Of a stretch of DNA of 64,000 nucleotides, positions 2,862 to 50,045 are shown piece after piece. Location of the stretch: NCBI GenBank assembly GCA_035623825.1, contig DASPSR010000007.1:64001-128000 (forward strand), in the 5' to 3' direction. The translations under genes were made by a program, and so were the position numbers. The notes below the pieces were generated by a model, which made no database searches, was not told the origin of the DNA, and saw nothing but the letters and a program-made list of their open reading frames with translations. This DNA comes from Nitrospirota bacterium. Its GTDB lineage: Bacteria > Nitrospirota > UBA9217. Within the stretch, counting starts at the first letter, position 1. Each line of letters opens with the position of its first letter.

Positions 2862-3093
2862 AAGATAATAGAAAAAATTTAAACAGCAATTGATGACTGC
2901 TAGGACGTCGTTCACTAAAAAAAAGTCGTGAACTAAAACCCGTGAACAATATCCTGACAATTGTTAACAAAAATAAATTCTAAATAAATTAAAATAGTAA
3001 TTTCAAATGTTGGCACTGTTTTAAATTTTTGACTTTCGGTTTCATTGCGCATTGAGGGTCTCGGTTTTAGTACCTATCGATCCAAGGAGCGTC

Positions 3094-3531
3094 ATGTTGA
3101 ACAAGATGGCCATCCTTGCCGTTCTTGTCTGTTTATTTTGCGCCCTGGTTCTTGCCCAGGCTCAGGAGCAACAGAAGAAGTCTGGTGATCCTGGTATCTC
3201 CGCGTGGCTGCATGGTCTGCAGAACAAGCTAGAACAGATCGTGCCAAGGAAATCCGTCCCTCTGAGAAGCGGGGTTGGCGGGTTGCACGGATCCAGGGAA
3301 GCCCCCCAGGTCAGGCTTTATTGGAAAGGCAATAAGGACGACGAGGCGGTAACGGAAGGGGAACTTATGAAATTCAAGTCGGCTGTCGACGCAGCGGCAA
3401 AGGACGATCGTGCTGGTTCTGTCAAAGGATTCGAAGAGTTCATGAAACTGTATCCTGACAGCGCCCTTATCCCCGATGCCAAGAAGACACTCGACATCAT
3501 GAGGTCAGAAGGGAAAGGGGAGAAAAAATGA
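3094..3531 (+). CDS. Secreted hypothetical protein with C-terminal TPR-like helix pair
   Basis: AAGGAG before ATG 3094; signal peptide ending AQA; FEEFMKLYPDSALIPDA resembles TPR/BamD-type helices. Confidence 0.7.
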   Translation: MLNKMAILAVLVCLFCALVLAQAQEQQKKSGDPGISAWLHGLQNKLEQIVPRKSVPLRSGVGGLHGSREAPQVRLYWKGNKDDEAVTEGELMKFKSAVDAAAKDDRAGSVKGFEEFMKLYPDSALIPDAKKTLDIMRSEGKGEKK

Positions 3532-8504: not shown

Positions 8505-9620
8505 ATGTCCCATCCACATGCTGTCAAAGCGCCCCATGGGCACGGTCATCCCGGGGGCGATGGTAAGGAAAAGAAGTACCTTCCCCGGCTAATTGCCTGG
8601 GAGGTGACGCGAAGTTGTCTCTTGAACTGTGTCCACTGCCGGGCCGCGGCCCGGTATGGTCCATATCCAGGAGAACTGACGACTGAGGAGTGCTACCGGT
8701 TTCTCGATGATGTCAAGTCCTTCAGCGACCCTATCATCATCCTTACGGGTGGCGAACCCATGATGCGGCCGGACATCTACGACATAGCAAAGTACGGCAC
8801 GAGACTTGGCCTACGTATGGTCATGGCGCCCTGCGGCCTCCTTGTGACAGAAGAACTCGCCCAGAAGATTAAGGACTCAGGCGTTATGCGGGTTTCATTG
8901 TCCATTGATGGGTTGACCGCCGAGAGCCATAATGCCTTCCGTCGTGTAGAAGGGGCATTCGAGGGCGTGATGAAGGCCATCGAGAACTTCAAGAAGGTCG
9001 GCATGGAATTCCAAGTAAATACCACTATCACACAGCACAATGTCAAGGATTTGCCGAAGCTTCTCGAGATGGTGATTAAGCTAGGCGCCGTTGCTTACCA
9101 CCCGTTCCTGCTCGTACCTACGGGCCGTGGCAAGGACCTTGCTGATCAGGAAATTCCGCCGAAAGAGTATGAAAATACGCTTAAGTGGTTTTATGAAATG
9201 CGCGACAAGGTGCCGATCCAGTTTAAACCGACATGCGCCCCGCACTACTACCGCATTTTCCGCCAGGGCGAAAAGGCAAAGGGAAAGACCGTCACTCCGG
9301 AGTCCCATGGTTTCGATGCCATGACAAAGGGCTGCATGGGAGGCCAGAGCTTTGCCTTTGTATCGCATGTCGGCAAGGTACAGATCTGCGGGTTCCTTGA
9401 GGAAGAGGCTGGCGATATCAGGAAGGAACCCTTCTCAAAGATTTGGAACACGTCGAAGCTTTTCATGGAGATGCGGGACCTCGACCACTACCACGGAAAA
9501 TGCGGCATCTGCGAGTACCGCAGGGTCTGCGGTGGGTGCCGCGCTAGGGCCTATGCAATCTCGGGGGACTATCTCGCGGCAGAGCCCTTCTGCACGTACG
9601 AGCCGGTCAAGGTGCGTTAA
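8505..9620 (+). CDS. ahbD: Heme b synthase, radical SAM/SPASM (alternative heme biosynthesis)
   Basis: RLIAWEVTRSC...C.HCRA, TGGEP, FLLVPTGRG, TCAPHYYR, GKCG.CEY..VCGGCRARA. Confidence 0.85.
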   Translation: MSHPHAVKAPHGHGHPGGDGKEKKYLPRLIAWEVTRSCLLNCVHCRAAARYGPYPGELTTEECYRFLDDVKSFSDPIIILTGGEPMMRPDIYDIAKYGTRLGLRMVMAPCGLLVTEELAQKIKDSGVMRVSLSIDGLTAESHNAFRRVEGAFEGVMKAIENFKKVGMEFQVNTTITQHNVKDLPKLLEMVIKLGAVAYHPFLLVPTGRGKDLADQEIPPKEYENTLKWFYEMRDKVPIQFKPTCAPHYYRIFRQGEKAKGKTVTPESHGFDAMTKGCMGGQSFAFVSHVGKVQICGFLEEEAGDIRKEPFSKIWNTSKLFMEMRDLDHYHGKCGICEYRRVCGGCRARAYAISGDYLAAEPFCTYEPVKVR

Positions 9621-9770: not shown

Positions 9771-10610
9771 ATGGAAAAGACAAAGTTCTCACAAGTGTTG
9801 ACAAAAATTGACAGGCTGCTCGACCGCTACGTGGACGGTAGGCCGGAGACAGCGGATTTCGAGCGGTACCATGCACATCTCTGGGAGGGGAGGAAAGCAG
9901 GGCTGCGTCCGATCCAGAGGCCCGTAAGGATTAACCAGGACGACCTCATCGGCATCGATGCAATCAAGAAACAGGTCGTGCGGAACACTCGGAATTTTAT
10001 CGAGGGCAGGAAGGCGAACAACGTACTTCTGTGGGGAGAGCGGGGTGCCGGTAAATCGTCGCTCGTGAAGTCCCTTCTTATGACCTTTGCTGACACAAAT
10101 CTGAGATTGATCCAGGTCTACAAGCATGACATACTGACCATCCAGGACCTGTATGACATACCTGCACTGAACAGCTCTTACCGGTTCATCCTCTTCATCG
10201 ATGACCTCACTTTTGAGGAAAGTCAGACCGATTATAAGGAGATGAAGACGATCATGGACGGCGGCCTGGAGGAGATTCCCGACAATGTCCTGTTCTATGC
10301 TACGTCAAACCGGAAGCACCTGATTCCAACAAGATTCTCGGACAACGAGAGCGATGAGATTCGACCCGCGGATACCGTTGAGGAAAAGATCTCCCTTGCC
10401 GACCGTTTCGGTCTGAGGTTAGGCTTCTATCATTTTTCACAGGAGACCTATCTCGAGATTGTTGCATCCTATGCCGCCAAGTATGGTCTCCGGATGGACG
10501 CTGTGAGGCTCGAGCGGCTTGCGCTCCAGTGGGCTCTTTTCGCAGGGGGGAGGAACGGGCGAATCGCCGAGCAGTTCGTGAGGTCAGTCCAGAATGAGAC
10601 CAATCCGTAG
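9771..10610 (+). CDS. DUF815-family AAA+ ATPase
   Basis: NVLLWGERGAGKSS, FIDDL, YATSNR.HL, EEK.SL.DRFGL motifs. Confidence 0.9.
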   Translation: MEKTKFSQVLTKIDRLLDRYVDGRPETADFERYHAHLWEGRKAGLRPIQRPVRINQDDLIGIDAIKKQVVRNTRNFIEGRKANNVLLWGERGAGKSSLVKSLLMTFADTNLRLIQVYKHDILTIQDLYDIPALNSSYRFILFIDDLTFEESQTDYKEMKTIMDGGLEEIPDNVLFYATSNRKHLIPTRFSDNESDEIRPADTVEEKISLADRFGLRLGFYHFSQETYLEIVASYAAKYGLRMDAVRLERLALQWALFAGGRNGRIAEQFVRSVQNETNP

Positions 10611-15162: not shown

Positions 15163-16077
15163 CTAAAAAATGCTGAAGGAGAAATATTTTTTCGGATGTT
15201 CCTTGATGTCTTTTGCCAAGGCGTTGATCTCCTTCAACGTTGAGCGCAGGTCGTCGGCAAGTTCCTTGTCGGTTACAAGCTTTCCCATTGCCCCTTCTCC
15301 CCTGTCAACCTTTTCCAGGATCGCATTGAGCCGTATGGCGGCGGCATTCATGTTCTCGTACAAGCTGGCGTCCTCCACCAGCTTGTTTACGGTTCCACGC
15401 GATGTTGCCAGCTTTTCAGTGAATGAGTCAAGGGCACTAGATGCCCTGACGAACCGGTCGTAGAGAGCTGGATCCTTTACGACCTTGCTGATCGTTCCCT
15501 CGGACGACTTGAGCATGGCAGCAAAGACCTTGATATCTTTCACCGAATACAAAAGCTCCCGATAGAGCGTGTCCTCGTTCAGGAGCTTTGCAAGTGAGCC
15601 TTTGCTGGTCTCGACGTTTTCGATGGCCCGCTTGAGCTCCTCGGCAATTTCGGAGCTGGGCGACCCGCTGATTGCATCACCCGGCTTCAATAGAGCGGCC
15701 TCCCGGGTTCCGGTGCCTATTTCCACATATTTATCGCCGAGAAGCCCCATCGTGAGAATACTTGCGGTGCAATCTTTTTTAAGATACGAGAACGCCGACT
15801 TTTCGATGGCCAGTGCCGCGGTGATTTTTTCGCCTCCCTCGAACCGGAGAGACTTGACCGATCCGATCTGAATGCCCGCGAACCACACCGGCGCGCTCGG
15901 ACGCAGCCCTTTGACATCGCTGAACGTGGCATACACAATTGCTTGCGGCGTAAAAAGGCGCATCACGTTTCCCGAGAAGAGCATTGCGAAGAACATGACG
16001 GCAAGACCGGCCGTGACGACTATTCCGACTCTTAGCTTGGCCCAGCTAGCGTGCCGGCGTGAATCGAACATAACCAT
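15163..16077 (-). CDS. mlaD: MlaD/MCE-family protein
   Basis: N-terminal TM, GL..SAPV..AG..IG.V, GLLGDKYVEI, helical tail ending HPKKY..FSIF. Confidence 0.9.
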   Translation of the reverse strand: MVMFDSRRHASWAKLRVGIVVTAGLAVMFFAMLFSGNVMRLFTPQAIVYATFSDVKGLRPSAPVWFAGIQIGSVKSLRFEGGEKITAALAIEKSAFSYLKKDCTASILTMGLLGDKYVEIGTGTREAALLKPGDAISGSPSSEIAEELKRAIENVETSKGSLAKLLNEDTLYRELLYSVKDIKVFAAMLKSSEGTISKVVKDPALYDRFVRASSALDSFTEKLATSRGTVNKLVEDASLYENMNAAAIRLNAILEKVDRGEGAMGKLVTDKELADDLRSTLKEINALAKDIKEHPKKYFSFSIF

Positions 16078-16095
16078 CCCTCCGAGTTTAGGAAT

Positions 16096-16833
16096 TTAAA
16101 GGATGTCCTTGATGAACCTCTTCAGCTCGGCGTCCTGGGTGCTCGTGAGGGCACCCAAGTCGCCATCGAACCGGATCTTTCCGTTTCTGAGATACAGGAA
16201 GCGATCAGCGACCTTGACCGCATCCGCCACATCATGGGTCACGATAATGAGCCCTGTCCGTTCAGACGGATTGCCGGATGAGAGCTCATTAATCAGGTCG
16301 CAGATGGTGTCCGCGGTGATGGGATCGAGCCCGGAAGTGGGCTCATCGTACAGCATCATCTTGGGCTTGCACCCTGCTAAGGAGCGGGCGATGGCAACCC
16401 TGCGCTGCATGCCCCCGCTGAGCTCCTCGGGCATGAGATCCGCAGCGTCCTTAATGCCTACCCGGTCGAGAAGATTTTTGACCGTGGACTCCACGATATC
16501 CTCCGGTAATTTTTCCCTCTCCAGCAGACAGAACGACACATTGTCCCGTACGCTCAGAGAGTCGAAGAGAGCGCCTTCCTGAAACACGACGCTGAAGTTC
16601 ATACGGATATCCCTGAGCTTGGATTCGGACAAATTCGCGATGTCCGTCCTATTGATCAGGATTTTACCGCTGTCAGGCTGTTCGAGACCAAGGATCAGTT
16701 TTAGGATCGTCGTCTTTCCTTTGCCGCTGGATCCCAAGATCGCGATTTTCTCATGGAACTGAATGGAAAAGCTCATTCCGTCAAGAACGGGATTCTCATT
16801 GTAGGAGAGCGTTACGTCCCGAAACTCTATCAT
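16096..16833 (-). CDS. mlaF: Mla-type ABC transporter ATP-binding protein
   Basis: GSSGKGKT, FQEGALFDS, LSGGM..RV, YDEPTSGLDP; ATG 16833 overlaps the mlaE stop. Confidence 0.92.
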   Translation of the reverse strand: MIEFRDVTLSYNENPVLDGMSFSIQFHEKIAILGSSGKGKTTILKLILGLEQPDSGKILINRTDIANLSESKLRDIRMNFSVVFQEGALFDSLSVRDNVSFCLLEREKLPEDIVESTVKNLLDRVGIKDAADLMPEELSGGMQRRVAIARSLAGCKPKMMLYDEPTSGLDPITADTICDLINELSSGNPSERTGLIIVTHDVADAVKVADRFLYLRNGKIRFDGDLGALTSTQDAELKRFIKDIL

Positions 16834-17618
16834 GCCTGCATCCCCAGAATGAAGAACAATACCTGCGTCAGGAAAAAATCGACGACAATGATCATGATGG
16901 TTGAAAGCACCACGGCGGTGGTGGTGGCGCGCCGCAGTCCTTGTGCGCCTCCGTGTGCGGATAGGCCCACCGCGCAGCTGATGCAGGTGATAAGGTAGCC
17001 GAAGATAAATGGTTTGGTCAGTCCGGATACAACATTTTGAAAATTCAATTCGTCGCCGATCTGGCTCCAATAGAAGACACCGCTCTGGTGGCTCATCGCG
17101 ACAGCGATATAGTAGCCTCCTGTCAAGGAGATAGCGTCACCCATCAGTGTGAGGAGCGGCAGCATGATCGTAGAACTCAGCACTCTAGGCGTGACCAGCT
17201 TAATGATAGGATCCGTCCCGTACACTCGGAGCATGTCCACTTGGTGGCTCAGCACCATGGAGCCTATTTCAGACGCCATTCCGGAACCTACACGGCCCGC
17301 GTAACTGAGAGCAATGGCTACGGGGCCGATTTCCCGGATGATGGCGATACCTACGATTTTCGCTGTGTACATCTTGAGGCCGAGAGGCGCCAGCTCGGCT
17401 GATATCTGTAGGGAAAGGGCCATGCCAATGAAGAGGGAGACAAGAAAAACGATAAAAAAAGATCCCACTCCTGCATAATCCATCTGATCGATGACGTCCC
17501 GCCAGTTCAATGATCTGCGGAATATTCCCAGCAGCGCATTAAGGGAAAGGATGTAGAAATTCTGCAGTTCTGAGATTAACCGTCGGAGAGTCATCTGTCG
17601 TATCGTAAAAGGCCGCAC
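16830..17618 (-). CDS. mlaE: MlaE-family ABC permease
   Basis: REIGPV, AGRVGS.MASEIGSM, LV.PR, ATT.AVV motifs. Confidence 0.92.
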   Translation of the reverse strand: MRPFTIRQMTLRRLISELQNFYILSLNALLGIFRRSLNWRDVIDQMDYAGVGSFFIVFLVSLFIGMALSLQISAELAPLGLKMYTAKIVGIAIIREIGPVAIALSYAGRVGSGMASEIGSMVLSHQVDMLRVYGTDPIIKLVTPRVLSSTIMLPLLTLMGDAISLTGGYYIAVAMSHQSGVFYWSQIGDELNFQNVVSGLTKPFIFGYLITCISCAVGLSAHGGAQGLRRATTTAVVLSTIMIIVVDFFLTQVLFFILGMQA

Positions 17619-17818: not shown

Positions 17819-18853
17819 TCAAGATACATCGCACGCTGAAGAACGACTTGAGCATAGAGAGGTGCGCAAAGGTTGAGAATGTGTCGACAGTTCCGCTAAC
17901 GTAAAATATCCTTCTACAGCCGCTTCGACATCTTCCACTCGTAACAGGTGGTTCACCTTTGTCCTGAACTCTGCTCCGCCTGGCAATCCTTTCGTATACC
18001 AGCAGAGGTGCTTGCGCATCTCTCGAACACCTGCGCTCTCGCCGAGTAGTTTAACAATATCATTCAGGTGACGGAGCATGATCGCTTTCCGTTCTTCATG
18101 AGAAGGGTTAGGAGGGACAACGCCGGTTGCAAGATGTTGCTTTGCCTCACGGAAAATCCAGGGATTTCCCTGAATCGCCCGCCCAATCATGACACCGTCG
18201 CACCCTGTTTCGGCCATCATCCGTTTTGCATCCTGGGCGATGCGCACATCACCGTTCCCGATTACGGGGATGCCAACCGCGTCCTTCACTGCCTTGATCA
18301 TGCTCCAGTCAGCATGGCCGGAGAAGCCCTGCGCCTTCGTGCGGCCGTGTACGGTTACGGCGGCGATACCGACGGATTCTGCAGCTCGTGCGAGATCCAC
18401 TGCAACGATATTCTGAGAATCCCAGCCGAGGCGTATTTTGACCGTCACCGGTACGCTGGATGCTTCCACAACCGCAGTCATGATTTCTGTTGCCCGTCCG
18501 ATATCGCGCAGGAGCGCCGAGCCCGCGCCGCATTTCAAGATCTTCGGCACGGGGCAGCCCATGTTGATGTCGATAAAATCCACTGCCCCTCGTGAAACGA
18601 TGCGGGCCGCAGCTTCCATTGACTTCGGCTTCGAGCCGAAGATCTGGAACGCGACGGGCCTCTCCGCAGGATCGGTGCGAAGTATGTCGAAAGTCCTTTT
18701 GTGCTCCCGGATCAGCGCCTCGACGCTAACCATCTCGGAAAACACGAGTCCTGCGCCGAGTTCCCTGCAGATCCTGCGGAAGGGGAAGTCGGTGATCCCG
18801 GCCATGGGAGCGAGCACGAGTGGGTTGTTCCTGAGGATTTCACGGATCGACAT
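17819..18853 (-). CDS. dusB: tRNA-dihydrouridine synthase B
   Basis: LAPMAGITD.PFR, DINMGCP, TVKIRLG, VHGRT, GNGD, GNPW.F. Confidence 0.93.
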   Translation of the reverse strand: MSIREILRNNPLVLAPMAGITDFPFRRICRELGAGLVFSEMVSVEALIREHKRTFDILRTDPAERPVAFQIFGSKPKSMEAAARIVSRGAVDFIDINMGCPVPKILKCGAGSALLRDIGRATEIMTAVVEASSVPVTVKIRLGWDSQNIVAVDLARAAESVGIAAVTVHGRTKAQGFSGHADWSMIKAVKDAVGIPVIGNGDVRIAQDAKRMMAETGCDGVMIGRAIQGNPWIFREAKQHLATGVVPPNPSHEERKAIMLRHLNDIVKLLGESAGVREMRKHLCWYTKGLPGGAEFRTKVNHLLRVEDVEAAVEGYFTLAELSTHSQPLRTSLCSSRSSACDVS

Positions 18854-19219
18854 GAAGCTATTATAACCGAAAGAAATCGAAATGCGAAAGCTTTTCGGGA
18901 GTTGATTTCGAAGAAAAGGGCCCATGACAAATGAGGAGAAAAGCGAAAGAAGGGGGGAACCGTCAATATTCAAACCGCCATTCCCGTTCTGTCAGCCTCC
19001 TAAGGTAAGAAAAAAGCATTACCCCCAGAGGAGAACGAATGTGATTGGCCTCACGGTCGTGTTTGAGAAGATTACGTATAATGAGCAGAAGAAAAAACAA
19101 AAAATTTGGTGTGTTATGTAACTCGCTGCAGCTCCGAGCGATTATCCATTCTAAAGAAATGAGGCGGGAAATTTCGCAAACGGGGAGCGACCGAGGCAAT
19201 GGTCTGCTCTCTTCAGGTG

Positions 19220-20662
19220 ATGAAAGTGAAACTGAGCATTCTCTTTCGGTTGTTTCTAGGATATTTTTTCTTGCTGGGCCTGGCAACGTGCCTGAGCGTC
19301 TACGTCATTGTTCAGCTCGGCCGCGTAATCGATGTCACCCGTTCCATCATCCTGGTGGACAATTCCCTTATGAGCCATCTTAAAGATCTGACCGATACCC
19401 TTCTTTCCGAAACGAGGTGCGAAAAAAAATATCTTATTGAACAGGATTCGTCGCTCTATGAAGGCTTTTTGAAATCAAAGGGAGAGTTCGAACATTACTT
19501 GAGTGAAGCACGCCTGCTGGATATTACAATCGAGGCACGGAATGTTTTGGACAACATAGCGGACTTTCATCTGACGTATGATGCACTGTTTCAAGAGGAG
19601 GCTGATTATCTGAAGGACGGTACAAACTACAACAAGGAATGGTATGCCAAAGAGAAGGAACGGGCAGTCAACGCCGCAATAGAAGAGTTAGTCAAGGTCA
19701 GGCTTTTGAGCCAGCAGGGCATCTTCTACAAAGTGAAAAATCTAAGCGAAGAGGGCACGAGGTCGCGGGCAATTTCCATTGCGGTGAGTGCGGCATTGCT
19801 TCTGGCCGGAATTCTCCTGGTAGTCTTGATAACTAGGAGTATTACGCAGCCTCTCGCGCTCATGCAGAAGAAGACGAGAGAAATCGCTGACGGCGTGTTC
19901 GAAGCGGACTTAAATCTCCCTTCCCCTCCGGAAATAGGGGAACTGGCACAGGCATTCAATATCATGTGCCGTAAGCTGAAAGAGGTGGACAAGACGAAGT
20001 CTGATTTTTTTGCTCTCATGTCCCATGAACTGCGAACGCCACTCACCGCCATCAATGAGGGGACCAACCTCTTCCTCGAAGGCAAGGGAGGGGAGGTTAC
20101 GGAAAAGCAAAAAAAGCTGCTTACCATCGTATCTGAGGAAAGCAACCGACTCATCGGGCTGGTCAACTCCGTTCTGGATTTGTCGAAGCTTGAATCGGGA
20201 ATGCTGAATTTCAATTTTGCCAGGGCCGACCTGTCTCCACTCATCGCGAGAGTGGTGGATGAAGTGGGGCCGCTGGCAGAAGCGAAACGAATCAGGATAA
20301 AACGCGAGATGTCAGATTTGCCGGCGCTGTCAATGGACACCGAAAGAATGCTTCAGGTACTGCGGAACCTTATGGGGAATGCGCTGAAATTCACGCCTCG
20401 CGGAGGAATGGTGGGTATTGCCGCTCGGCGTCTGGATAATGCAGTCATGGTTTCCGTTTCCGACACAGGGCCAGGTATTCCGAAGGAACATGAAGCGGTT
20501 ATTTTTGACAAGTTCCGGCAGGTCCCCGGTTCCACTAGGCTCCCCGGGACCGGTCTAGGCCTGGCTATCGTCAAACACATTATTCAGGCTCACGGAGGAA
20601 CGGTATGGGTAGAATGCGAAGCAGGTGGCGGCAGCACCTTCACTTTTCGGCTGCCTGCCTGA
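19220..20662 (+). CDS. HAMP-domain sensor histidine kinase (GlrK/QseE-like)
   Basis: Two TMs flanking a periplasmic domain, HAMP, SHELRTPL, NL..NALKF, DTGPGI, GTGLGL. Confidence 0.92.
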   Translation: MKVKLSILFRLFLGYFFLLGLATCLSVYVIVQLGRVIDVTRSIILVDNSLMSHLKDLTDTLLSETRCEKKYLIEQDSSLYEGFLKSKGEFEHYLSEARLLDITIEARNVLDNIADFHLTYDALFQEEADYLKDGTNYNKEWYAKEKERAVNAAIEELVKVRLLSQQGIFYKVKNLSEEGTRSRAISIAVSAALLLAGILLVVLITRSITQPLALMQKKTREIADGVFEADLNLPSPPEIGELAQAFNIMCRKLKEVDKTKSDFFALMSHELRTPLTAINEGTNLFLEGKGGEVTEKQKKLLTIVSEESNRLIGLVNSVLDLSKLESGMLNFNFARADLSPLIARVVDEVGPLAEAKRIRIKREMSDLPALSMDTERMLQVLRNLMGNALKFTPRGGMVGIAARRLDNAVMVSVSDTGPGIPKEHEAVIFDKFRQVPGSTRLPGTGLGLAIVKHIIQAHGGTVWVECEAGGGSTFTFRLPA

Positions 20663-21054
20663 TCCTTTTCATGGTCGTCACAGCCTGCGCTCCTCTCACG
20701 CAGACTTTCGCAGAACGCGAGGGTTGTTGCCATCTTACGCGCCTTAACAGCTTTATCAGCAGGGGAGATTTCGAGGGCGCGATGAAGCAGTGCCAGGATG
20801 TTCTGGCACGCTCGCCAAAAACTCCTCCGGGAGATGAGGCGCTCATGGACATGGGGCTCATCAGCGCCCATTACGCCAATCCGAAGAAGGATTATAGAAA
20901 AGCGCTGGGCTACTTCACGCGCGTCGATAAGGAATTTCCCCAGAGCCCTCTTGTGGAAGAGGCGAAGATATGGACGAGCGTGCTGCAGGCCTTCGAGAAG
21001 GCTAAGCAGGTGGATTTCGAGATCGAGGAAAAGAAGCAGGGCCTGGGAAAGTAG
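20605..21054 (+). CDS. TPR lipoprotein (QseG-like accessory)
   Basis: Lipobox VTAC; TPR-like helices; lies between kinase and regulator as qseG does. Confidence 0.75.
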   Translation: MGRMRSRWRQHLHFSAACLILFMVVTACAPLTQTFAEREGCCHLTRLNSFISRGDFEGAMKQCQDVLARSPKTPPGDEALMDMGLISAHYANPKKDYRKALGYFTRVDKEFPQSPLVEEAKIWTSVLQAFEKAKQVDFEIEEKKQGLGK

Positions 21055-21056
21055 GT

Positions 21057-22424
21057 ATGGCCGTGACGTCCGGAAAACTCTTGATCGTGGATGACGATCA
21101 TAACCTCCTGGAGCTGATGAAGATCAGGCTCGAATCATCGGGTTACGCCGTAACAACAGCGCACGATGAAGACGAGGCAAAAACGGCGACGGTCGGACAA
21201 GCATTTGACCTTGCGATTGTCGACCTTCAACTCGTCCACCAAGACGGGATCTCTCTCATGGAGGAGGTCCACCGTGTGAGCCCCGGAATGCCCGTCATCA
21301 TCCTTACCGCCCATGGCAGCATTGAGAGCGCCGTGGAGGCGATGAAGCGGGGAGCATTTACCTATCTCACGAAACCCTTCGATGCCCACGAGCTGATTCT
21401 GCACGTAGAGCATGCCATGGAAAACAGGAGGCTTGCTTCGGAGATTAATCGGCTGAAAGGCATTTTAGCCGAGCGGTTAGATTTTCGGAACATCGTTGCT
21501 CGAAGTGCAGCAATGCAGACAGTGCTAGAGGCAGTTTCCCGGATTGCGAAGACGGATTCGACCGTGTACGTCCAGGGAGAAAGCGGCACGGGCAAGGAAC
21601 TCATCGCACGGGCCATTCACCTTGCGAGCGATAGAAGAGACAAGCCCTTTGTGGCAATCAACTGTGCAGCCCTTCCCGAAACGCTGCTTGAGAGCGAACT
21701 ATTTGGCCATGAGAAGGGCGCGTTCACCGGGGCTGTGAAAAGTTCAAGGGGTCTCTTTGCCAAGGCCCATGAGGGCTCTATATTTCTTGACGAAATAGGC
21801 GACATGCCGCTTTCCACCCAGGCAAAATTTCTCCGCGTCCTTCAGGAGCGCCAGTTCTATCCCGTAGGGAGCGAACATTCGCTGGACGTGGACGTGCGCG
21901 TCATAGTGGCCACGAACAAAGATCTGGAAGAGCACGTCAAACAAGGGCTGTTCCGCGAGGACCTATATTACCGCATTCACGTTATTCCCATAGCCCTTCC
22001 GCCCCTTAGGGAGCGGAAGGAGGACATCCCCGTTCTGGTGGACCATTTCATGAAGCAGTTCTGTGGCCAGATGGATAAAAAGATAAAAGGCCTCACGCCT
22101 CTGGCGCTTCAGCGGCTGATGCTCCATAATTGGCCCGGAAACGTCCGCGAGCTCGAAAACACCATTGAGTATGCTGTAGCCATGACGAGGCAGGACGTTA
22201 TTACCGAGGACTTGATCCTTCCAGCGAAAAGCGCAACTGAAGAAACGATCAAGCCGCTGAAAGAAGCCAGAGAAACCTTCGAAAAAAGCTATCTCATCCG
22301 GGTTCTCGAACTGACCAGGGGAAACGTGAGTCGCGCCGCAACCTTGGCGGGGAAATACAGGGCTGATTTGTACAATCTCCTGAAAAAATATGTTATTAAT
22401 CCCGCTGATTTTAAAAAAGAGTGA
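21057..22424 (+). CDS. Sigma54-dependent response regulator (GlrR/QseF-like)
   Basis: Receiver domain, GESGTGKE, GAFTGA, FLDEIGDM, WPGNVREL, Fis-type HTH. Confidence 0.95.
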   Translation: MAVTSGKLLIVDDDHNLLELMKIRLESSGYAVTTAHDEDEAKTATVGQAFDLAIVDLQLVHQDGISLMEEVHRVSPGMPVIILTAHGSIESAVEAMKRGAFTYLTKPFDAHELILHVEHAMENRRLASEINRLKGILAERLDFRNIVARSAAMQTVLEAVSRIAKTDSTVYVQGESGTGKELIARAIHLASDRRDKPFVAINCAALPETLLESELFGHEKGAFTGAVKSSRGLFAKAHEGSIFLDEIGDMPLSTQAKFLRVLQERQFYPVGSEHSLDVDVRVIVATNKDLEEHVKQGLFREDLYYRIHVIPIALPPLRERKEDIPVLVDHFMKQFCGQMDKKIKGLTPLALQRLMLHNWPGNVRELENTIEYAVAMTRQDVITEDLILPAKSATEETIKPLKEARETFEKSYLIRVLELTRGNVSRAATLAGKYRADLYNLLKKYVINPADFKKE

Positions 22425-22506
22425 AAAACATGGAATCCGCCGTCTGTCCGTTTCCATCAGTACAAACGCCCCGAGTCCGAAAGGCCCGTGAACAAATAAT
22501 CCCATA

Positions 22507-22524
22507 TGTATGCATTTTCATACA
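22507..22524. promoter_or_regulatory. Candidate enhancer-binding-protein site (UAS)
   Basis: Palindrome TGTATG-N6-CATACA (TGT-N12-ACA). Confidence 0.55.
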
Positions 22525-22561
22525 GAGGCATAACCACGTGATTTCTTGCCTCTAATCTGTC

Positions 22562-22574
22562 AATCAAGTCATTA
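22562..22574 (+). promoter_or_regulatory. IHF binding site
   Basis: AATCAAgtcaTTA matches WATCAANNNNTTR. Confidence 0.55.
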
Positions 22575-22694
22575 TAGGCAGTATTTACTGCAGAGGATTC
22601 CATACGCTTTTGACCAACCAGCCATGAGCGTCAAAGCACGTGCGAGTGAAAATTGCACCAAGAAATCAATACGATTGCACTATCAGTACATCCA

Positions 22695-22710
22695 CGGCAT
22701 TTGATTTGCT
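22695..22710 (+). promoter_or_regulatory. Sigma54 -24/-12 promoter
   Basis: CGGCATTTGATTTGCT = GG-N10-GC with TTGC. Confidence 0.75.
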
Positions 22711-22839
22711 TTATATGACATCAGGGCGGGACAAAAAAGGAGATTCACGCACTGCAAAAAAAGATGAGTGTGGCATCGCTGTTATCTTCTATTGAATGCC
22801 CTTTTCAGGATTAGAGAAAAAAAGAGGGAGGAATCGAAC

Positions 22840-23079
22840 ATGTCTGTCAATTTTTTCCCAAACAGAAAAGAGATGTTGAAGGAAATAGAACGGTGTACAG
22901 CCGAGAGCAAACTGGATATGTTGCTGAGTTTATGTACGTGTTGTTTGTATAGCAGCTACGATGAAGGGCCCTTGGTGTCCCAGTGCCTCAAGTGCAGTGT
23001 ACAGCAGGGGATAATGAAAATATCGGATAAGAGAACGCCCTCAGGGACCCCTCATCTCGAGTTTCTGAGAGTAAGTTGA
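22840..23079 (+). CDS. 79-aa Cys-rich hypothetical protein
   Basis: GGAGG SD; CTCC...CLKC cluster. Confidence 0.7.
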   Translation: MSVNFFPNRKEMLKEIERCTAESKLDMLLSLCTCCLYSSYDEGPLVSQCLKCSVQQGIMKISDKRTPSGTPHLEFLRVS

Positions 23080-23216
23080 TGGTTGGGGGTGCATGAGGAT
23101 TTCAACGGGGTGCGGCATGTTCACTCTACGCACCATACTTAACATGACCACCGTTGTGCAAGAAGAGCCGGTATGAGATTCGCGAATCTCTGTAATAATC
23201 ATGCAACGAAAGGAGC

Positions 23217-23585
23217 GTGGAGATGCAGCAACTTATTAGACATTTCTTGATTCCGCTGCTTGCCACCACGATGTGTGTAGTGGTCTTCGAAGGATTGTCC
23301 CGGGCCTCCCTGCCGGGAGGAGGGGAACAGAAGCCTTCGCTCCTTGAAGACACACGGCTGTCGCCGGCACATAAGGATTATGATGTGAACAAGATCATCA
23401 ATGTCCTTGAGAGCAGGATTAAGAATCATAATCTGCCGGAAAAGGCAAAAAACAAACTCGCCGCTATGAAAGATGAAGATGTCCAGATCTTAAAATCCCT
23501 TTGTGACCGGATGTCCGAGACGGGTGATACGGCGATTGCAGATTTTGCCCTCCTGCTTGCCGCCGCTGTCATCGTGATATCATAA
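23217..23585 (+). CDS. Exported/membrane-anchored hypothetical protein (PA2779-like architecture)
   Basis: N-terminal signal, helical middle, hydrophobic C-terminal tail DFALLLAAAVIVIS. Confidence 0.65.
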   Translation: MEMQQLIRHFLIPLLATTMCVVVFEGLSRASLPGGGEQKPSLLEDTRLSPAHKDYDVNKIINVLESRIKNHNLPEKAKNKLAAMKDEDVQILKSLCDRMSETGDTAIADFALLLAAAVIVIS

Positions 23586-23641
23586 GAAAGCATTCGATTA
23601 ATTGTGGGCGATTATTGCACATCTCACGAGAAGGAGCGACC

Positions 23642-24508
23642 ATGAAGAGAAGCGTAGCTAACATTTTATATCATGTAAGTGTCGTTATTCTGAGCGCTGG
23701 CATTGCACTCTCACTTCCCAATACCATTAAGTATCTGGCACAGAAAGTTCTGATGTACTGGTCTCTTCTGGAAAACGAGGAGATCTTCCTGATCGTCACG
23801 GAAGTAGCGGCTGCAATAATCCTGATCTTTCTAGTGAATGTTGTCGTAAGAGATTGGAGACTCAGGAAACTCGCGCGGCTTGCTAAGGATGCCGGCTTGG
23901 CAGGTGTTGCCCCTGCCACGGCGCTCATTACGAGGAGACGGTTGAAGAAGAAGAAGGAAGAGCAGGGATTCGGACGAAACGTCATGATTATCAATTCAAC
24001 GGGTTTTCAGACGTTCACCGACTCTGAGGGCGATCTGCATCAGGTCCTGCGAAATTGCCGTGAGGCGAAGATAATGCTCCTTAATCCGCTGATGGATGGC
24101 GTAACCGCCCGCGCGAAAAGCCTTTCCGACCCGGATACAACCCCTGAAATATTTCGAGAGAAGATCATACGAAGCATCGATTTTCTAAAAGGCCTCAAAG
24201 TGCTTCAGAAAAACGTCAGACTGAAGCTCTACGGGAACGCACCCCTTCTCAAGCTGGCCATACTCGGAGATTATCTGTGTTTACAGCATTATCCGATGGG
24301 CTTGAATGCGCGGAATATGCCCGAATATGTGTTCAAACATGACCAGCACGGCGGTCTCTTCAATCTCTTTTATCAATATTTCGTGAGCCAGTGGTTCGAT
24401 TTGAAGATACCGGAATACGATCTCGACACCGATGAGCTTATTTATAGAGACAAGGCAGGCAACGAGGTGAGACGGGAAAAGTTCAATGAAGTTGTTATGG
24501 AGTCTTGA
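23642..24508 (+). CDS. 2-TM protein with cytoplasmic DUF5919/PLD-fold-like domain
   Basis: AAGGAG SD; two TMs, then TG..TF, KIMLLNP, VRLKLY..P, F...F...W pattern; no HKD motif. Confidence 0.7.
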   Translation: MKRSVANILYHVSVVILSAGIALSLPNTIKYLAQKVLMYWSLLENEEIFLIVTEVAAAIILIFLVNVVVRDWRLRKLARLAKDAGLAGVAPATALITRRRLKKKKEEQGFGRNVMIINSTGFQTFTDSEGDLHQVLRNCREAKIMLLNPLMDGVTARAKSLSDPDTTPEIFREKIIRSIDFLKGLKVLQKNVRLKLYGNAPLLKLAILGDYLCLQHYPMGLNARNMPEYVFKHDQHGGLFNLFYQYFVSQWFDLKIPEYDLDTDELIYRDKAGNEVRREKFNEVVMES

Positions 24509-24549
24509 CTTTCGTATCAGTACTTCTGACCATACTCAGCCCCCCCCAC

Positions 24550-24595
24550 AGGGCGTCCTGACGGTCATTGAGCGGCAATCAGGATGCCCTTTCTT
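24550..24595 (+). terminator. Hairpin terminator ending the sigma54-driven unit
   Basis: AGGGCGTCCTGA...TCAGGATGCCCT followed by TTCTT. Confidence 0.65.
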
Positions 24596-24691
24596 CGTTG
24601 TGTCACTAACAGAAGCTTATTACGGCGTCTGATAGGATCATGCAATAAACGCGATAAAGTCCCGGATAAAATCCAGTCCCGGAGAAAATCC

Positions 24692-24720
24692 TTGACAATA
24701 ACGGGCTTATCTTATATATT
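24692..24720 (+). promoter_or_regulatory. Sigma70 promoter of the ffh operon
   Basis: TTGACA-17-TATATT. Confidence 0.75.
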
Positions 24721-24749
24721 TTATATTCTTTTCCGAGCGGGTGCTTTCT

Positions 24750-26084
24750 ATGTTTGATTCCCTGACGGGTAAATTAGAGGCCGTATTCAAGAAGCTTCGG
24801 GGCAGGGGTGTTCTCAAAGAGGATGACGTCAAAGAAGCCATGCGCGAGGTGCGTCTGGCGCTCCTCGAGGCTGATGTAAACTTCAAAGTCGTCAAGAACT
24901 TCATCGACCGTGTCCAGGAACGGGCAGTCGGGCAGGAAATCCTCGGCAGTCTTACGCCGGGTCAGCAGGTTGTCAAGATCGTCCACGAAGAGCTTGTAGC
25001 CTTGCTCGGTGGTGCGCAGGCAAAGCTCCATCTGGTGCCGAATCCCCCAACCATTATTATGATGGTCGGATTGCAGGGTTCTGGTAAAACGACCACTGCA
25101 GGTAAACTGGCAAAGAACTTCAAGAAAGATGGCCGACGCGTTATGCTTGTCCCGGCAGACACGCGAAGGCCGGCAGCGGTCCAACAGCTCATGACCTTGG
25201 CAAAACAGGTTGGCGTCGATGCCTACCCTTCGGACAGGCAAGATCCGGTAATCATCTGTCGCGAAGCAGTGAAGCAGGCGGCCTCTTCACTGTACGAGGT
25301 CGTAATCCTCGATACGGCGGGGCGGCTCCAGATCGATGAGCCTCTCATGGAAGAGCTCCGGCAGATCAAGACGGAGGTCAAGCCGCACGAGACGCTGTTC
25401 GTGGCCGACGCCATGACCGGCCAGGAAGCCGTGAATATCGCGGCGAAGTTCAACACTGACCTCGGATTCGACGGCGTTGTCCTGACCAAGCTTGACGGCG
25501 ACGCGCGGGGCGGGGCGGCGCTTTCGGTCAGGGCCGTCACGGGCAAGCCGCTCAAGTTCGTCGGCATGGGTGAGAAGCTCGACGCCCTCGAGCCGTTCCA
25601 TCCGGATCGTATGGCCTCTCGCATCCTCGGCATGGGCGATGTCATGTCGCTCATCGAGAAGGCGCAGGAAACGGTTTCCCAGGAGGAGGCGCTTAAGCTT
25701 GCGAAGAAGCTCAAGAAAAACTCTTTCGACCTCGACGACTTCCGAAGCCAGCTGAAACAGGTAAAAAAGCTCGGAGGACTTGAGCAGATCATGGGCATGA
25801 TTCCTGGGATGGGCAAGATGAAGATACTGGAAGCGCAGGTGAACGAGAGGGAACTGACGAAAATAGATGCCATCATCAGTTCCATGACCCCCAAGGAGCG
25901 GGCCGATTATACCGTCATCAATGGGAGCCGCAGGTCCCGCATCGCCAGGGGCAGTGGCACCCAGGTCCAGGACGTGAACCGCCTGCTCAAACAGTTCGCC
26001 GAGATGCTTAAGATGATAAAGGCCATGTCGGGCGGTAAGATGGGAAAGATGGGCAGAATGTTCGGCGGCAGGATGCCGTTTTAA
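24750..26084 (+). CDS. ffh: Signal recognition particle protein
   Basis: ALLEADV, GLQGSGKTT, DTAGR, TKLDGDARGG, Met-rich M domain. Confidence 0.98.
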   Translation: MFDSLTGKLEAVFKKLRGRGVLKEDDVKEAMREVRLALLEADVNFKVVKNFIDRVQERAVGQEILGSLTPGQQVVKIVHEELVALLGGAQAKLHLVPNPPTIIMMVGLQGSGKTTTAGKLAKNFKKDGRRVMLVPADTRRPAAVQQLMTLAKQVGVDAYPSDRQDPVIICREAVKQAASSLYEVVILDTAGRLQIDEPLMEELRQIKTEVKPHETLFVADAMTGQEAVNIAAKFNTDLGFDGVVLTKLDGDARGGAALSVRAVTGKPLKFVGMGEKLDALEPFHPDRMASRILGMGDVMSLIEKAQETVSQEEALKLAKKLKKNSFDLDDFRSQLKQVKKLGGLEQIMGMIPGMGKMKILEAQVNERELTKIDAIISSMTPKERADYTVINGSRRSRIARGSGTQVQDVNRLLKQFAEMLKMIKAMSGGKMGKMGRMFGGRMPF

Positions 26085-32157: not shown

Positions 32158-32775
32158 TCATTGAGATGACTGTTTCGCTTCAACGCCATAAGCTTGGGAA
32201 AATCTGTGTTGGGTAGTAAGATCCAGTTCTATCGCGGCTGCCCTGAACGGATACAGCAGTTTTTCAGGGCCTTCAAGTCTTGGCTCTATGATATATCGAG
32301 CTATAGCGATATCTTTGAAGCAGCCGTCGCACCTGTTTTTTCTGACCCGATATTTCAACCTCATCGAAAACGCCCCGTCATTCGAGGAAATGATGTTATT
32401 CATGATGCTGGAGAACTTTTCGACATCAGAGGCGGTCAATATGGCCAGAATATTAAGTGATTTATATTTCCTCTTGCCGTAAAGGTAGAGATTCTTGACT
32501 GCTTCTCCTCCCAGATAAATGACATGACCTGAATTGCCGATAAAGTAATTGACAACGGGAACGATGTGTTCCCTGTCTTTTTTCTTCAGGAGGTGAGCAT
32601 ATTTTTCAGGATTCTTCTCGAGTTTGAACAAGGGCATCGAACTGAAGTGGATCAGCGAAGGATGGTTGACATCCAGAGGGTCTCTAGAAAAAAAAGCGGA
32701 TATGTTTTTCTTCTTAGGCAGTTTCGAAGCATGCTCCGGATGCCCTATTAGGTGTTCAGTTTTATGCTGAACCAT
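32158..32775 (-). CDS. Hypothetical protein with degenerate nucleotidyltransferase-like motif
   Basis: GHVIYLGGEAVKNL..GKRKYKSLNI echoes the CCA/PAP motif YLVGG.VRD...D.DI; start set at ATG 32775. Confidence 0.55.
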   Translation of the reverse strand: MVQHKTEHLIGHPEHASKLPKKKNISAFFSRDPLDVNHPSLIHFSSMPLFKLEKNPEKYAHLLKKKDREHIVPVVNYFIGNSGHVIYLGGEAVKNLYLYGKRKYKSLNILAILTASDVEKFSSIMNNIISSNDGAFSMRLKYRVRKNRCDGCFKDIAIARYIIEPRLEGPEKLLYPFRAAAIELDLTTQHRFSQAYGVEAKQSSQ

Positions 32776-33087
32776 AATGCCGTTCCTCTGTACATCAATA
32801 TTATAATCGAAACCTGAGAAAAAAAGAAGGGGATTATTTTTATGATAACAGTAAAACATGCATTTTTTGGGTGCTTGCCATGTAATCAAGCACAGCTGCA
32901 GTGTAGCAGACATCAGTTTTTTCGTAAAATGAAGGCGACACAAGTCATTGATATCGCCATGCTCACTGCCCGTTAATATGCCGACTGGGTAAGGATATAC
33001 AGGCGGCACATATCACGTGCTCATTGCACATTCCCAGATTTTGCACAATGCTTGAATTTACCCGCCCGTCCATGGTAAAGTGCCTCC

Positions 33088-49274: not shown

Positions 49275-50045
49275 ATGATGAAACGATCGATATTTTTGCT
49301 TATAGCGGGTTTTTTGGCCCTGTCGGCCTCGGGCGCTTATGCCGCTCCTGAGGGTGAGAGATCCTTGCCGTCGAAGCAGACCCAATTGGCCGAAGAGACG
49401 GCGGGAACGATGGGACCGTCCCCCTCCGGGAAGGTGGTGGAAACAATGAACGCTGGCGGGTATACATATGTCTGCCTTGAAAAAGGCGGGAAGAAGACCT
49501 GGGTTGCTGTCCCCGAGATGAAAGTGACCGTGGGGCAGCAGATAACGTTCAAACCAGGGCAAGAGATGACGGATTTTAGCAGCAAGACGCTGAACAAAAC
49601 GTTCGCGAGCATCATTTTTTCCGAAGGCCCTGCTGCTTCCCAGAAGAACACCGGCAATAAGGTTGAGCCTGCAAAGGCCCCTGGCAGCAAAGCGGCGGTG
49701 GTAGCGTCCGCAGGGGAAATTTCCGTGCAAAAGGCCGCCGGTCCGGATGCTTATACCGTGGGCGAGGTGTACGCGAAGGGAGCGTCGCTGAACGGAAAAT
49801 CCGTTATCGTCAAGGGCAAGGTCGTGAAGGTGTCAAAGGCCATCATGGGGAAGAACTGGCTCCATCTTCAGGACGGCACCGGAGATTCCGGCAAGGGGAC
49901 ACACGATCTGGTAGTGACGACGGCCGCGGACACGGTTGCCGTTGGTGACGTTGTGACGGCAAAAGGGACCGTTTACAAGGACAAGGACTTCGGGTCCGGA
50001 TACAAGTATGACGTGATCATGGAAGAGGCGACCATCCAGCACTGA
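49275..50045 (+). CDS. Exported OB-fold protein (NrfJ-like N-terminal domain)
   Basis: Signal peptide; GKVVETM.AGGYTY...W.A, FSSKTL.KTF, IMGKNWLHLQDG, DFGSGY.Y. Confidence 0.75.
   Translation: MMKRSIFLLIAGFLALSASGAYAAPEGERSLPSKQTQLAEETAGTMGPSPSGKVVETMNAGGYTYVCLEKGGKKTWVAVPEMKVTVGQQITFKPGQEMTDFSSKTLNKTFASIIFSEGPAASQKNTGNKVEPAKAPGSKAAVVASAGEISVQKAAGPDAYTVGEVYAKGASLNGKSVIVKGKVVKVSKAIMGKNWLHLQDGTGDSGKGTHDLVVTTAADTVAVGDVVTAKGTVYKDKDFGSGYKYDVIMEEATIQH

Follow-up and report, generated by a model that had tools for sequence, protein, structure and literature searches.

Among described regulatory systems, the closest to the locus considered here are the enterobacterial QseE-QseG-QseF (GlrK-QseG-GlrR) systems, in which genes for a sensor kinase, a lipoprotein and a sigma54 activator stand in that order and whose working mode (PMC6075780) is comparable to that proposed for the module described below. 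Their target is the small RNA (sRNA) GlmY, encoded upstream of the kinase, and the glmY promoter is reported to have three activator sites and two integration host factor (IHF) sites (PMC3045617). Structural work (PMC12691602) gives R70, R73 and D80 of QseE as QseG interface residues, with R70A abolishing QseG binding, and lists the three-gene cluster for Pseudomonadota only; its main text contains neither Nitrospir- nor Desulfo-. GlrR and GlrK of Acidithiobacillia are listed without targets in section 3.3 of PMC12194929. The present locus (positions 19,220 to 24,599) lies in a 64,000-nucleotide window from a Nitrospirota bacterium (positions 64,001 to 128,000 of contig DASPSR010000007.1, assembly GCA_035623825.1), where a HAMP-containing kinase, a tetratricopeptide repeat (TPR) lipoprotein and a GAFTGA-containing activator are followed by a sigma54 promoter and three co-oriented open reading frames (ORF4, ORF5 and ORF6); gene calls and domain searches agree with an initial annotation of the window on the identity and placement of all six genes. 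It is highly probable, judging from the conservation described below, that the promoter and operon are the target of the adjoining module, and probable that the whole is a QseEGF-type trans-envelope three-component system directly driving a sigma54 promoter just 3' of the activator gene, with an envelope operon as its output. The initial description of an undescribed system was overstated, because GlrK and GlrR have already been mentioned in delta-proteobacteria and Nitrospira (PMC8895600); in the literature searched, no published description of the operator or of the operon was found.

The assignment of the target is made because the linkage is conserved in two phyla, rearranged loci included, and because predicted activator boxes stand at a fixed distance from the −24/−12 element. 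The logic itself, in which an activator adjoins its own target, is ordinary for sigma54 regulation. An ORF6 alignment was used for a single scan of GTDB, which found 278 relatives, and the best 80 loci were analyzed (cited here by L numbers; L027 and L028, both among the 80, are from the same genome). Their hosts are sediment and soil bacteria of the Nitrospirota and Desulfobacterota (Desulfobulbaceae, Desulfocapsaceae, Syntrophaceae, Desulfobacteraceae and unnamed deltaproteobacteria), and single contigs with other taxon labels may reflect mis-binning; the nearest fetched relative is a Nitrospirota metagenome-assembled genome whose activator is 89% identical. The activator is present at 60% identity or more in 34 of the 80 loci, and in 28 of the 56 that have at least 3 kb of upstream sequence, whereas kinase, lipoprotein and activator are all present in 26 of the 80. 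It lies upstream of ORF6 in 32 of the 34 linked loci, and the linkage persists where the order has changed, the operon preceding the kinase in L067 and L073 and a divergent kinase of the family being present in L063. In the last of these (L063:99-5311, Nitrospirota), boxes at −2759 and −2484 accompany a sigma54 promoter that precedes genes for a small exported protein, a PilZ-like protein and a probable beta-barrel protein (labels read from the sequence), followed by ORF6.

The sigma54 promoter of the window, CGGCATTTGATTTGCT (22695..22710, + strand), is where the initial annotation had placed it and would direct transcription from near 22721; a [TC]GGCA-N6-TTGC promoter is found in 32/32 relatives with the activator upstream, 138–557 nt past the activator stop codon. 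For the scoring of boxes, 32 rows were used, comprising 31 relatives (the duplicate L028 being dropped) and the window. In 32/32 rows, an 18-bp box with the consensus TGTAGGAAAATCCATACA is located between −93 and −118 relative to the GG, and a second box lies upstream of it by 79–84 nt (26 rows) or 32–33 nt (6 rows), the distal box scoring above 10 in 31/32 rows and being weak in L030. In the window, the predicted distal box, TGTATGCATTTTCATACA (22507..22524; TGTATG-N6-CATACA; −189 from the GG; leave-one-out score 19.5), is the TGT-N12-ACA palindrome that had been recognized initially as a single site, but the predicted proximal box, TGCAGAGGATTCCATACG (22589..22606; −107 from the GG), with a leave-one-out score of 13.0 that 0/2000 shuffles reach, had been missed. 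The IHF consensus AATCAAGTCATTA noted at 22562–22574 is a genuine match, but its position (−134) is conserved in 0/31 relatives, and the probable IHF sites are one on the reverse strand at 22531..22543, 6 nt past the distal box and with one mismatch, and one on the + strand at 22664..22676, −32 from the GG and with two mismatches. The position of the first is matched in 9/25 relatives with at most one mismatch and in 14/25 with at most two; the offset of the second (−31/−32) is matched in 17/31 and 26/31, respectively, and recurs at E. coli glmY.

In 5000 dinucleotide shuffles of 22425–22760 (336 nt), TGT-N12-ACA arose in 10.9%, the IHF consensus in 3.0% and GGCA-N6-TTGC in 0.62%, and all three jointly in 0/5000, with the reservation that these patterns were picked after inspection of the region. 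A scan for the composite of box and promoter over both strands of 2.33 Mb returned 38 matches, of which 33 are at the promoters that supplied the matrix (the window and a duplicate included) and five, in L003, L067 and L073, are independent; each of these five stands before an ORF5/ORF6 operon or directly after the activator. A second promoter combining a box with a sigma54 element, at L067:7585 and L073:14734, lies directly 3' of the activator and ahead of the gene for a large probable lipoprotein (624–745 aa). Elsewhere in the window, a lone box-like 18-mer (score 16) within a DUF815 gene (10267–10284) and a YGGCA-N6-TTGCW match within a radical-SAM gene (9128–9143) form no composite promoter and are probably due to chance.

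The arrangement resembles that at E. coli glmY, where the same measurements give boxes at −204, −171 and −108, together with matches to IHF at −151 and −32: both promoters combine several TGT-N12-ACA-type boxes with two IHF sites, the proximal box being at −107 here and −108 there and an IHF site at −32 in each (PMC3045617). They differ in that there are two boxes here versus three and in the core of the box, TGTAkG..CCATACA versus TGTC..GACA; the present boxes thus depart from the TGTC-N10-GACA sequence quoted initially for the enterobacterial system. The target also differs, lying 3' of the activator and encoding proteins rather than upstream of the kinase and encoding GlmY, and it is not a GlmY/GlmZ-family sRNA: an Rfam search of 18500–25000 gave no match, and neither GlmY nor GlmZ was matched in 7 related loci. 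An sRNA or riboswitch in the leader or the upstream gap was rejected because no Rfam match, unusual folding or conservation was found; the leader (22721–22845) folds no better than its shuffles (z +0.79), and the leaders of relatives have very different lengths and share no sequence. The leader does contain the GGA motifs that had drawn comment, five triplets in all, but no conserved signal accompanies them in relatives, which have 0–6 GGA per 120 nt, often within coding sequence, and a CsrA-type signal was rejected as unsupported.

A protein target is not peculiar to the family in the Nitrospirota and Desulfobacterota, as is indicated by a betaproteobacterial qseEGF locus on a plasmid of Mitsuaria sp. 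7 (NZ_CP011515; L086:3898-11289), where the module is likewise directly followed by a GlrR-type box, by an IHF site at −32 and by a sigma54 promoter that precedes a protein operon. There the operon is opgG-opgH, so that a GlrR-type system apparently drives periplasmic glucan synthesis, a relationship that the predicted promoter suggests and for which no report of GlrR/QseF control of mdoG/opgG was found in a literature search. The Mitsuaria lipoprotein differs from that of the window in matching the QseG profile (E 5e-4, over a C-terminal stretch) and in being outside the TPR family.

The activator (21057..22424, + strand) has a receiver domain with the putative phosphorylation site Asp56, an AAA+ domain with GAFTGA and a GlrR-like helix-turn-helix (HTH), and over 454 aa, all three of these features among them, it shares 46% identity with E. 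coli GlrR. Among 128 NCBIfam models, its top match is GlrR. In a tree of 32 rows, E. coli GlrR has the 22 module activators as its sister group (support 99/96), separate from AtoC, ZraR, NtrC and six other activators of the loci; a 19-row tree with betaproteobacterial GlrR gives the same grouping (SH-aLRT 98), and a topology forcing the two proteobacterial GlrRs to group with AtoC/ZraR/NtrC is rejected (p-AU 0.0036). It should be recognized that these trees have few outgroups and a long GlrR branch; as placed by them, the activator is a member of the GlrR clade.

The QseE/GlrK-type sensor kinase (19220..20662, + strand, with an alternative start at 19199) has two transmembrane helices, a predicted helical periplasmic sensor and HAMP, HisKA and HATPase domains. 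A BLAST match to GlrK is confined to the cytoplasmic part (28%), but in a 20-row alignment R66, K69 and D76 of the kinase align without gaps with R70, R73 and D80 of E. coli QseE, the equivalents of R70 and D80 being invariant and the R73 position being Lys. A profile of the periplasmic region, built without the E. coli sequence, was compared with 177,635 PDB sequences and had a single match at E ≤ 10, 8jwd_A, over a stretch identical to E. coli GlrK. On this alignment evidence, the kinase is taken to have a helical-bundle sensor carrying the predicted QseG-binding residues. The initial view of a GlrK/QseG/GlrR-like module is thus sustained for the activator, through its phylogeny and HTH, and for the kinase; the lipoprotein has no significant similarity to QseG. 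The locus can be placed with the QseEGF systems on its activator, its kinase, the order of its genes and the layout of its promoter.

A number of results weigh against the interpretation offered here. At the level of the components, the activator scores 486.5 bits against the curated GlrR cut-off of 763, and therefore does not qualify as a strict GlrR equivalog, and the similarity of the kinase periplasmic domain to that of QseE is weak (E 0.083 for the match to 8jwd_A and E 0.14 in a second profile comparison). At the level of the locus, ORF6 occurs without the activator in 28 of the 56 loci with at least 3 kb upstream; being in unrelated contexts in half of the well covered loci, it is not exclusive to this regulon. 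The promoter and box are retained in only 4 of 46 activator-less loci, and, since the 80 loci are the closest of the 278, the linkage figures are too high for the ORF6 family as a whole. The E. coli GlrR sites score 7.3, −14.3 and −8.6 on the matrix, from which it follows that binding specificity has diverged, and motifs of the TGT-N12-ACA class are common among the activators of Desulfovibrio (PMC4641369), so that TGT-N12-ACA is not diagnostic by itself.

The last of these points raises the question of whether a sigma54 activator encoded elsewhere drives the promoter, the adjoining module being a bystander, because these phyla encode many activators, several of them sharing TGT-N-ACA motifs (according to the same source), and because box and promoter are retained in L003 and L079, where the fetched DNA contains no module. 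The boxes nevertheless accompany this activator family in 34/34 loci, across two phyla and through rearrangements, and occur also at the second promoter that directly follows the activator in L067 and L073, and an activator encoded elsewhere is accordingly regarded as very improbable. The identification of promoter and operon as the target of the adjoining module, already made in the initial annotation, has withstood both the comparison of synteny and that of the intergenic regions.

The remaining difficulties concern the TPR lipoprotein, which occupies the qseG position (20605..21054, + strand) and has a lipobox Cys (Cys28) and TPR helices; D137 and K144 are invariant residues of its conserved C-terminal helix. 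In the alignment of 22 orthologs, which are of 147–286 aa, the lipobox Cys is invariant. Three comparisons with QseG gave no significant similarity: the BLAST E value is 3.2, profile-profile comparison gives a probability of 6.5% and covers the lipobox only, and the C-terminal profiles of the two proteins fail to retrieve each other among 5838 ORFs; the Pfam search also gave no match to PF13942, the QseG family. As a caveat, the QseG alignment behind the profile comparisons contains enterobacterial sequences only. Given the lack of significant similarity, a QseG-like role has to be argued from gene position, from the residues kept on the kinase side and from the C-terminal tail, which can be aligned by eye with the kinase-binding tail of QseG; by analogy, such a role is likely. 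Alternatively, the activator and kinase may be relatives of QseF and QseE with this promoter as their target, and the lipoprotein a replacement of unrelated origin and with another mode of action, such as that of a BamD/CpoB-like scaffold or of an inhibitor. The failure of the three comparisons would then be expected, the best structural relatives found by sequence are indeed TPR proteins, BamD and CpoB, and the mature protein is of about 120 aa, whereas E. coli QseG, which is stated to need to span about 17 nm, has about 210 aa (PMC12691602). However, such a replacement would share the position of qseG, an invariant lipobox Cys, an alignable tail and a kinase partner that keeps the QseG-binding residues, and QseG itself is reported in the same source to diverge strongly across taxa; we consider it unlikely. 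The length of the lipoprotein varies in that a duplicated TPR unit (259–286 aa) or a lengthened C-terminal coiled coil, with the tip conserved, is found in L034, L043, L046, L048, L050, L055, L057 and L059, and in L027, L045, L051, L052, L067 and L073.

In the mechanism favored here, that of a QseEGF-type system acting on the adjoining promoter, the conserved C-terminal helix of the lipoprotein would touch the periplasmic helical bundle of the kinase, as the QseG-QseE pair suggests, and the kinase, to judge from domains and synteny, would phosphorylate the activator on Asp56. The activator would then bind the two 18-bp boxes, whose conservation is observed, while IHF would bend the DNA at −32 and beside the distal box, and sigma54 polymerase would start near 22721. 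ORF4, ORF5 and ORF6 would be transcribed as one operon to the terminator at 24550, and their products would serve envelope maintenance.

The characters of the three products were correctly guessed in outline, being those of a Cys-rich protein, an exported helical protein and a protein with a phospholipase D (PLD) fold; as to the three-gene operon, the ORFs (starts picked from ribosome-binding sites and alignments of homologs) are co-oriented, but the conserved unit is ORF5-ORF6. ORF4 (22840..23079, + strand; 79 aa) has a putative metal-binding C-x2-C-x13-C-x2-C pattern, of which Cys32, Cys35 and Cys52 are invariant in 9 sequences. It matches no Pfam or NCBIfam family and has Atlas scores under 0.9. 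Intact copies are present in 10 of the 80 loci and decayed remnants in 2, and ORF4 is lineage-limited and dispensable; in many Desulfobacterota loci, its slot is occupied by a lone receiver domain, encoded upstream of ORF6 in 12 of the 80 loci and never together with ORF4.

ORF5 (23223..23585, + strand; 120 aa) has a signal peptide, a helical core and a C-terminal hydrophobic helix, the same layout as in the PA2779 family (NF033919, DUF6627). Its NCBIfam match to that family (E 3e-4, 21 bits) is under the 40-bit cut-off, but its profile matches three PA2779-type proteins with a probability of 84% (E 7e-6), which supports its placement as a putative distant homolog. It differs from the family in having a shorter tail and in being paired with ORF6, and the operon of the window has no peptidase gene. 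The structure model is helical (pLDDT 72), and a fold search with it returned nothing at E ≤ 0.001. ORF5 directly precedes ORF6 in 51 of the 80 loci, in 21 of which there is no activator.

ORF6 (23642..24508, + strand; 288 aa) consists of two transmembrane helices and a PLD-superfamily domain, which, from the basic stretch that follows the helices, is predicted to be cytoplasmic. It has 1471 homologs, those shown being unannotated, which cluster at 50% into 536 representatives. No significant match was found in a sequence search of the PDB; the model (pLDDT 76) matches the folds of TrmBL2, NucT and Nuc (Z 10.6–11.0, root mean square deviation 2.9–3.1 over 133–138 aa). Should ORF6 be an active PLD-family phospholipase or nuclease, as the fold, the membrane anchor and the conservation of Lys204 (55/60 rows), Gln215 and a G-x-T-G loop would allow, the operon would remodel lipids directly. 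In the HxK(x)4D motif, however, the His is absent, the position being L, F, I, T or V in 58 of 60 rows (P-L-L-K-L-A-I-L-G-D in the window), and the top fold matches include the non-catalytic TrmBL2, TrmB and FAM83 domains; loss of the His with retention of the Lys is the pattern expected of a non-catalytic domain, and catalysis is considered quite improbable. ORF6 resembles the non-catalytic PLD-fold domains (the TrmB/TrmBL2 C-terminal domain, FAM83 DUF1669 and DUF5919, to which 7/60 homologs have weak matches) in fold and in the missing His, but differs in having two N-terminal transmembrane helices and no DNA-binding domain. As a guess, the balance of which is against it, ORF6 could sit in the inner membrane without catalytic activity, its pseudo-PLD domain binding either a partner or some phosphorylated ligand, and act with an exported, membrane-tethered ORF5. 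Prediction of an ORF5-ORF6 complex gave a score of 0.00 relative to a mark of 0.32, but the controls were not folded, so that this is evidence in neither direction. A role for ORF6 as an anti-phage protein was rejected, a weak PADLOC match being found in 1/60 homologs.

The view that the operon serves envelope upkeep is drawn from gene neighbors, because longer operons (L018, L019, L025 and L074) add genes for Pal-like and PA2779 proteins, a C39 peptidase, a TPR lipoprotein and small exported proteins; those of L018, L019 and L074 hold a true PA2779 gene together with split PA2778-like C39 peptidase genes. The same neighborhoods bear on whether the operon is instead a feedback module with no envelope effector, in which the receiver of the first slot (or ORF4) drains or tunes phosphorylation and ORF5 and ORF6 modulate the kinase in the membrane. 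The mutually exclusive occurrence of receiver and ORF4, the placement of the operon in L067 and L073, where it lies directly upstream of the kinase, and the similarity of ORF6 to the TrmB effector-binding fold are in keeping with feedback, whereas the 21 activator-less ORF5-ORF6 pairs and the structural envelope genes of the longer operons speak for an envelope output, and feedback is viewed as rather doubtful.

The terminator reported initially was recovered by folding, although a pattern scan missed it, as a 12-bp stem with a T-rich tail (24550..24599, + strand; stem 24550–24590, z −2.7). A related hairpin lies directly past ORF6 in 7 close relatives (L002, L005, L006, L007, L008, L011 and L016), with changes on both sides in 8/18 pairs; the search pattern that retrieved it was devised after viewing the sequences. 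The loop in these relatives is C/U-rich and anti-Shine-Dalgarno-like, and is deleted in the copy of the window. The hairpin is possibly the source of a 3'-derived sRNA.

Taken jointly with the Mitsuaria locus, these observations permit the speculation, advanced with little confidence, that QseEGF is a gauge of ancient origin acting across the envelope, and that from Enterobacteriaceae to Nitrospirota and Desulfobacterota the geometry of its promoter has persisted while its outputs (sRNA, opgGH or ORF5-ORF6) were swapped. The lipoprotein would then be a ruler of periplasm width, its length being varied between 147 and 286 aa through duplication of the TPR or extension of the coiled coil with its kinase-binding tip fixed. 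ORF5-ORF6 would be a new pair of membrane proteins for envelope maintenance, with a pseudo-PLD sensor as its basis, and the C-rich hairpin of the terminator might supply an sRNA derived from the 3' end.

There is still no settled view of the signal or the broader purpose of QseEGF. With the present family, the full module, its accessory lipoprotein being of the TPR type, reaches two more phyla, in which the family supplies a sharply defined predicted operator and a protein regulon that points toward envelope upkeep. It also provides a first regulatory context for two unannotated protein families, ORF6 being the one with 1471 homologs, and the natural length variants of the lipoprotein are direct test material for a periplasm-spanning mechanism.

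Other settings of ORF6 were also encountered. In L022, L024, L038 and L040, it belongs to another cluster, which an unrelated two-component pair of the sigma54 type (38% identity) precedes; genes for glycine-zipper proteins, MlaC, lytic transglycosylase, trehalose synthesis and DUF4168 proteins are distributed over these loci. A gene for a hybrid kinase composed of a receiver and HATPase lies 3' of ORF6 in a deltaproteobacterial group (L027, L028, L034, L043, L045, L051 and L052), and a distant homolog (27% over 138 aa) is found on an Azospirillum brasilense plasmid (L085:5599-6555) amid ORFs that, read from their translations, are phage-like lysis and tail genes.

The window around the module is otherwise housekeeping, and the module itself is flanked by dusB and ffh. 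An mlaEFD-like group (a MlaD gene with ABC ATPase and permease genes; 15163–17618, − strand) has dusB in the same orientation, the kinase being divergent, and no activator box upstream. ORFs of 159–584 aa at 32161–33009 (−), 49275–50045 (+), 52171–53925 (+) and 3052–3531 (+) match no Pfam family at E ≤ 1e-4. Among the related loci, Rfam matches unrelated to the module are a c-di-GMP-I riboswitch (L073:18237-18328), a group II intron domain (L019:8634-8856) and a DUF3800-VIII RNA (L032:4516-4581).

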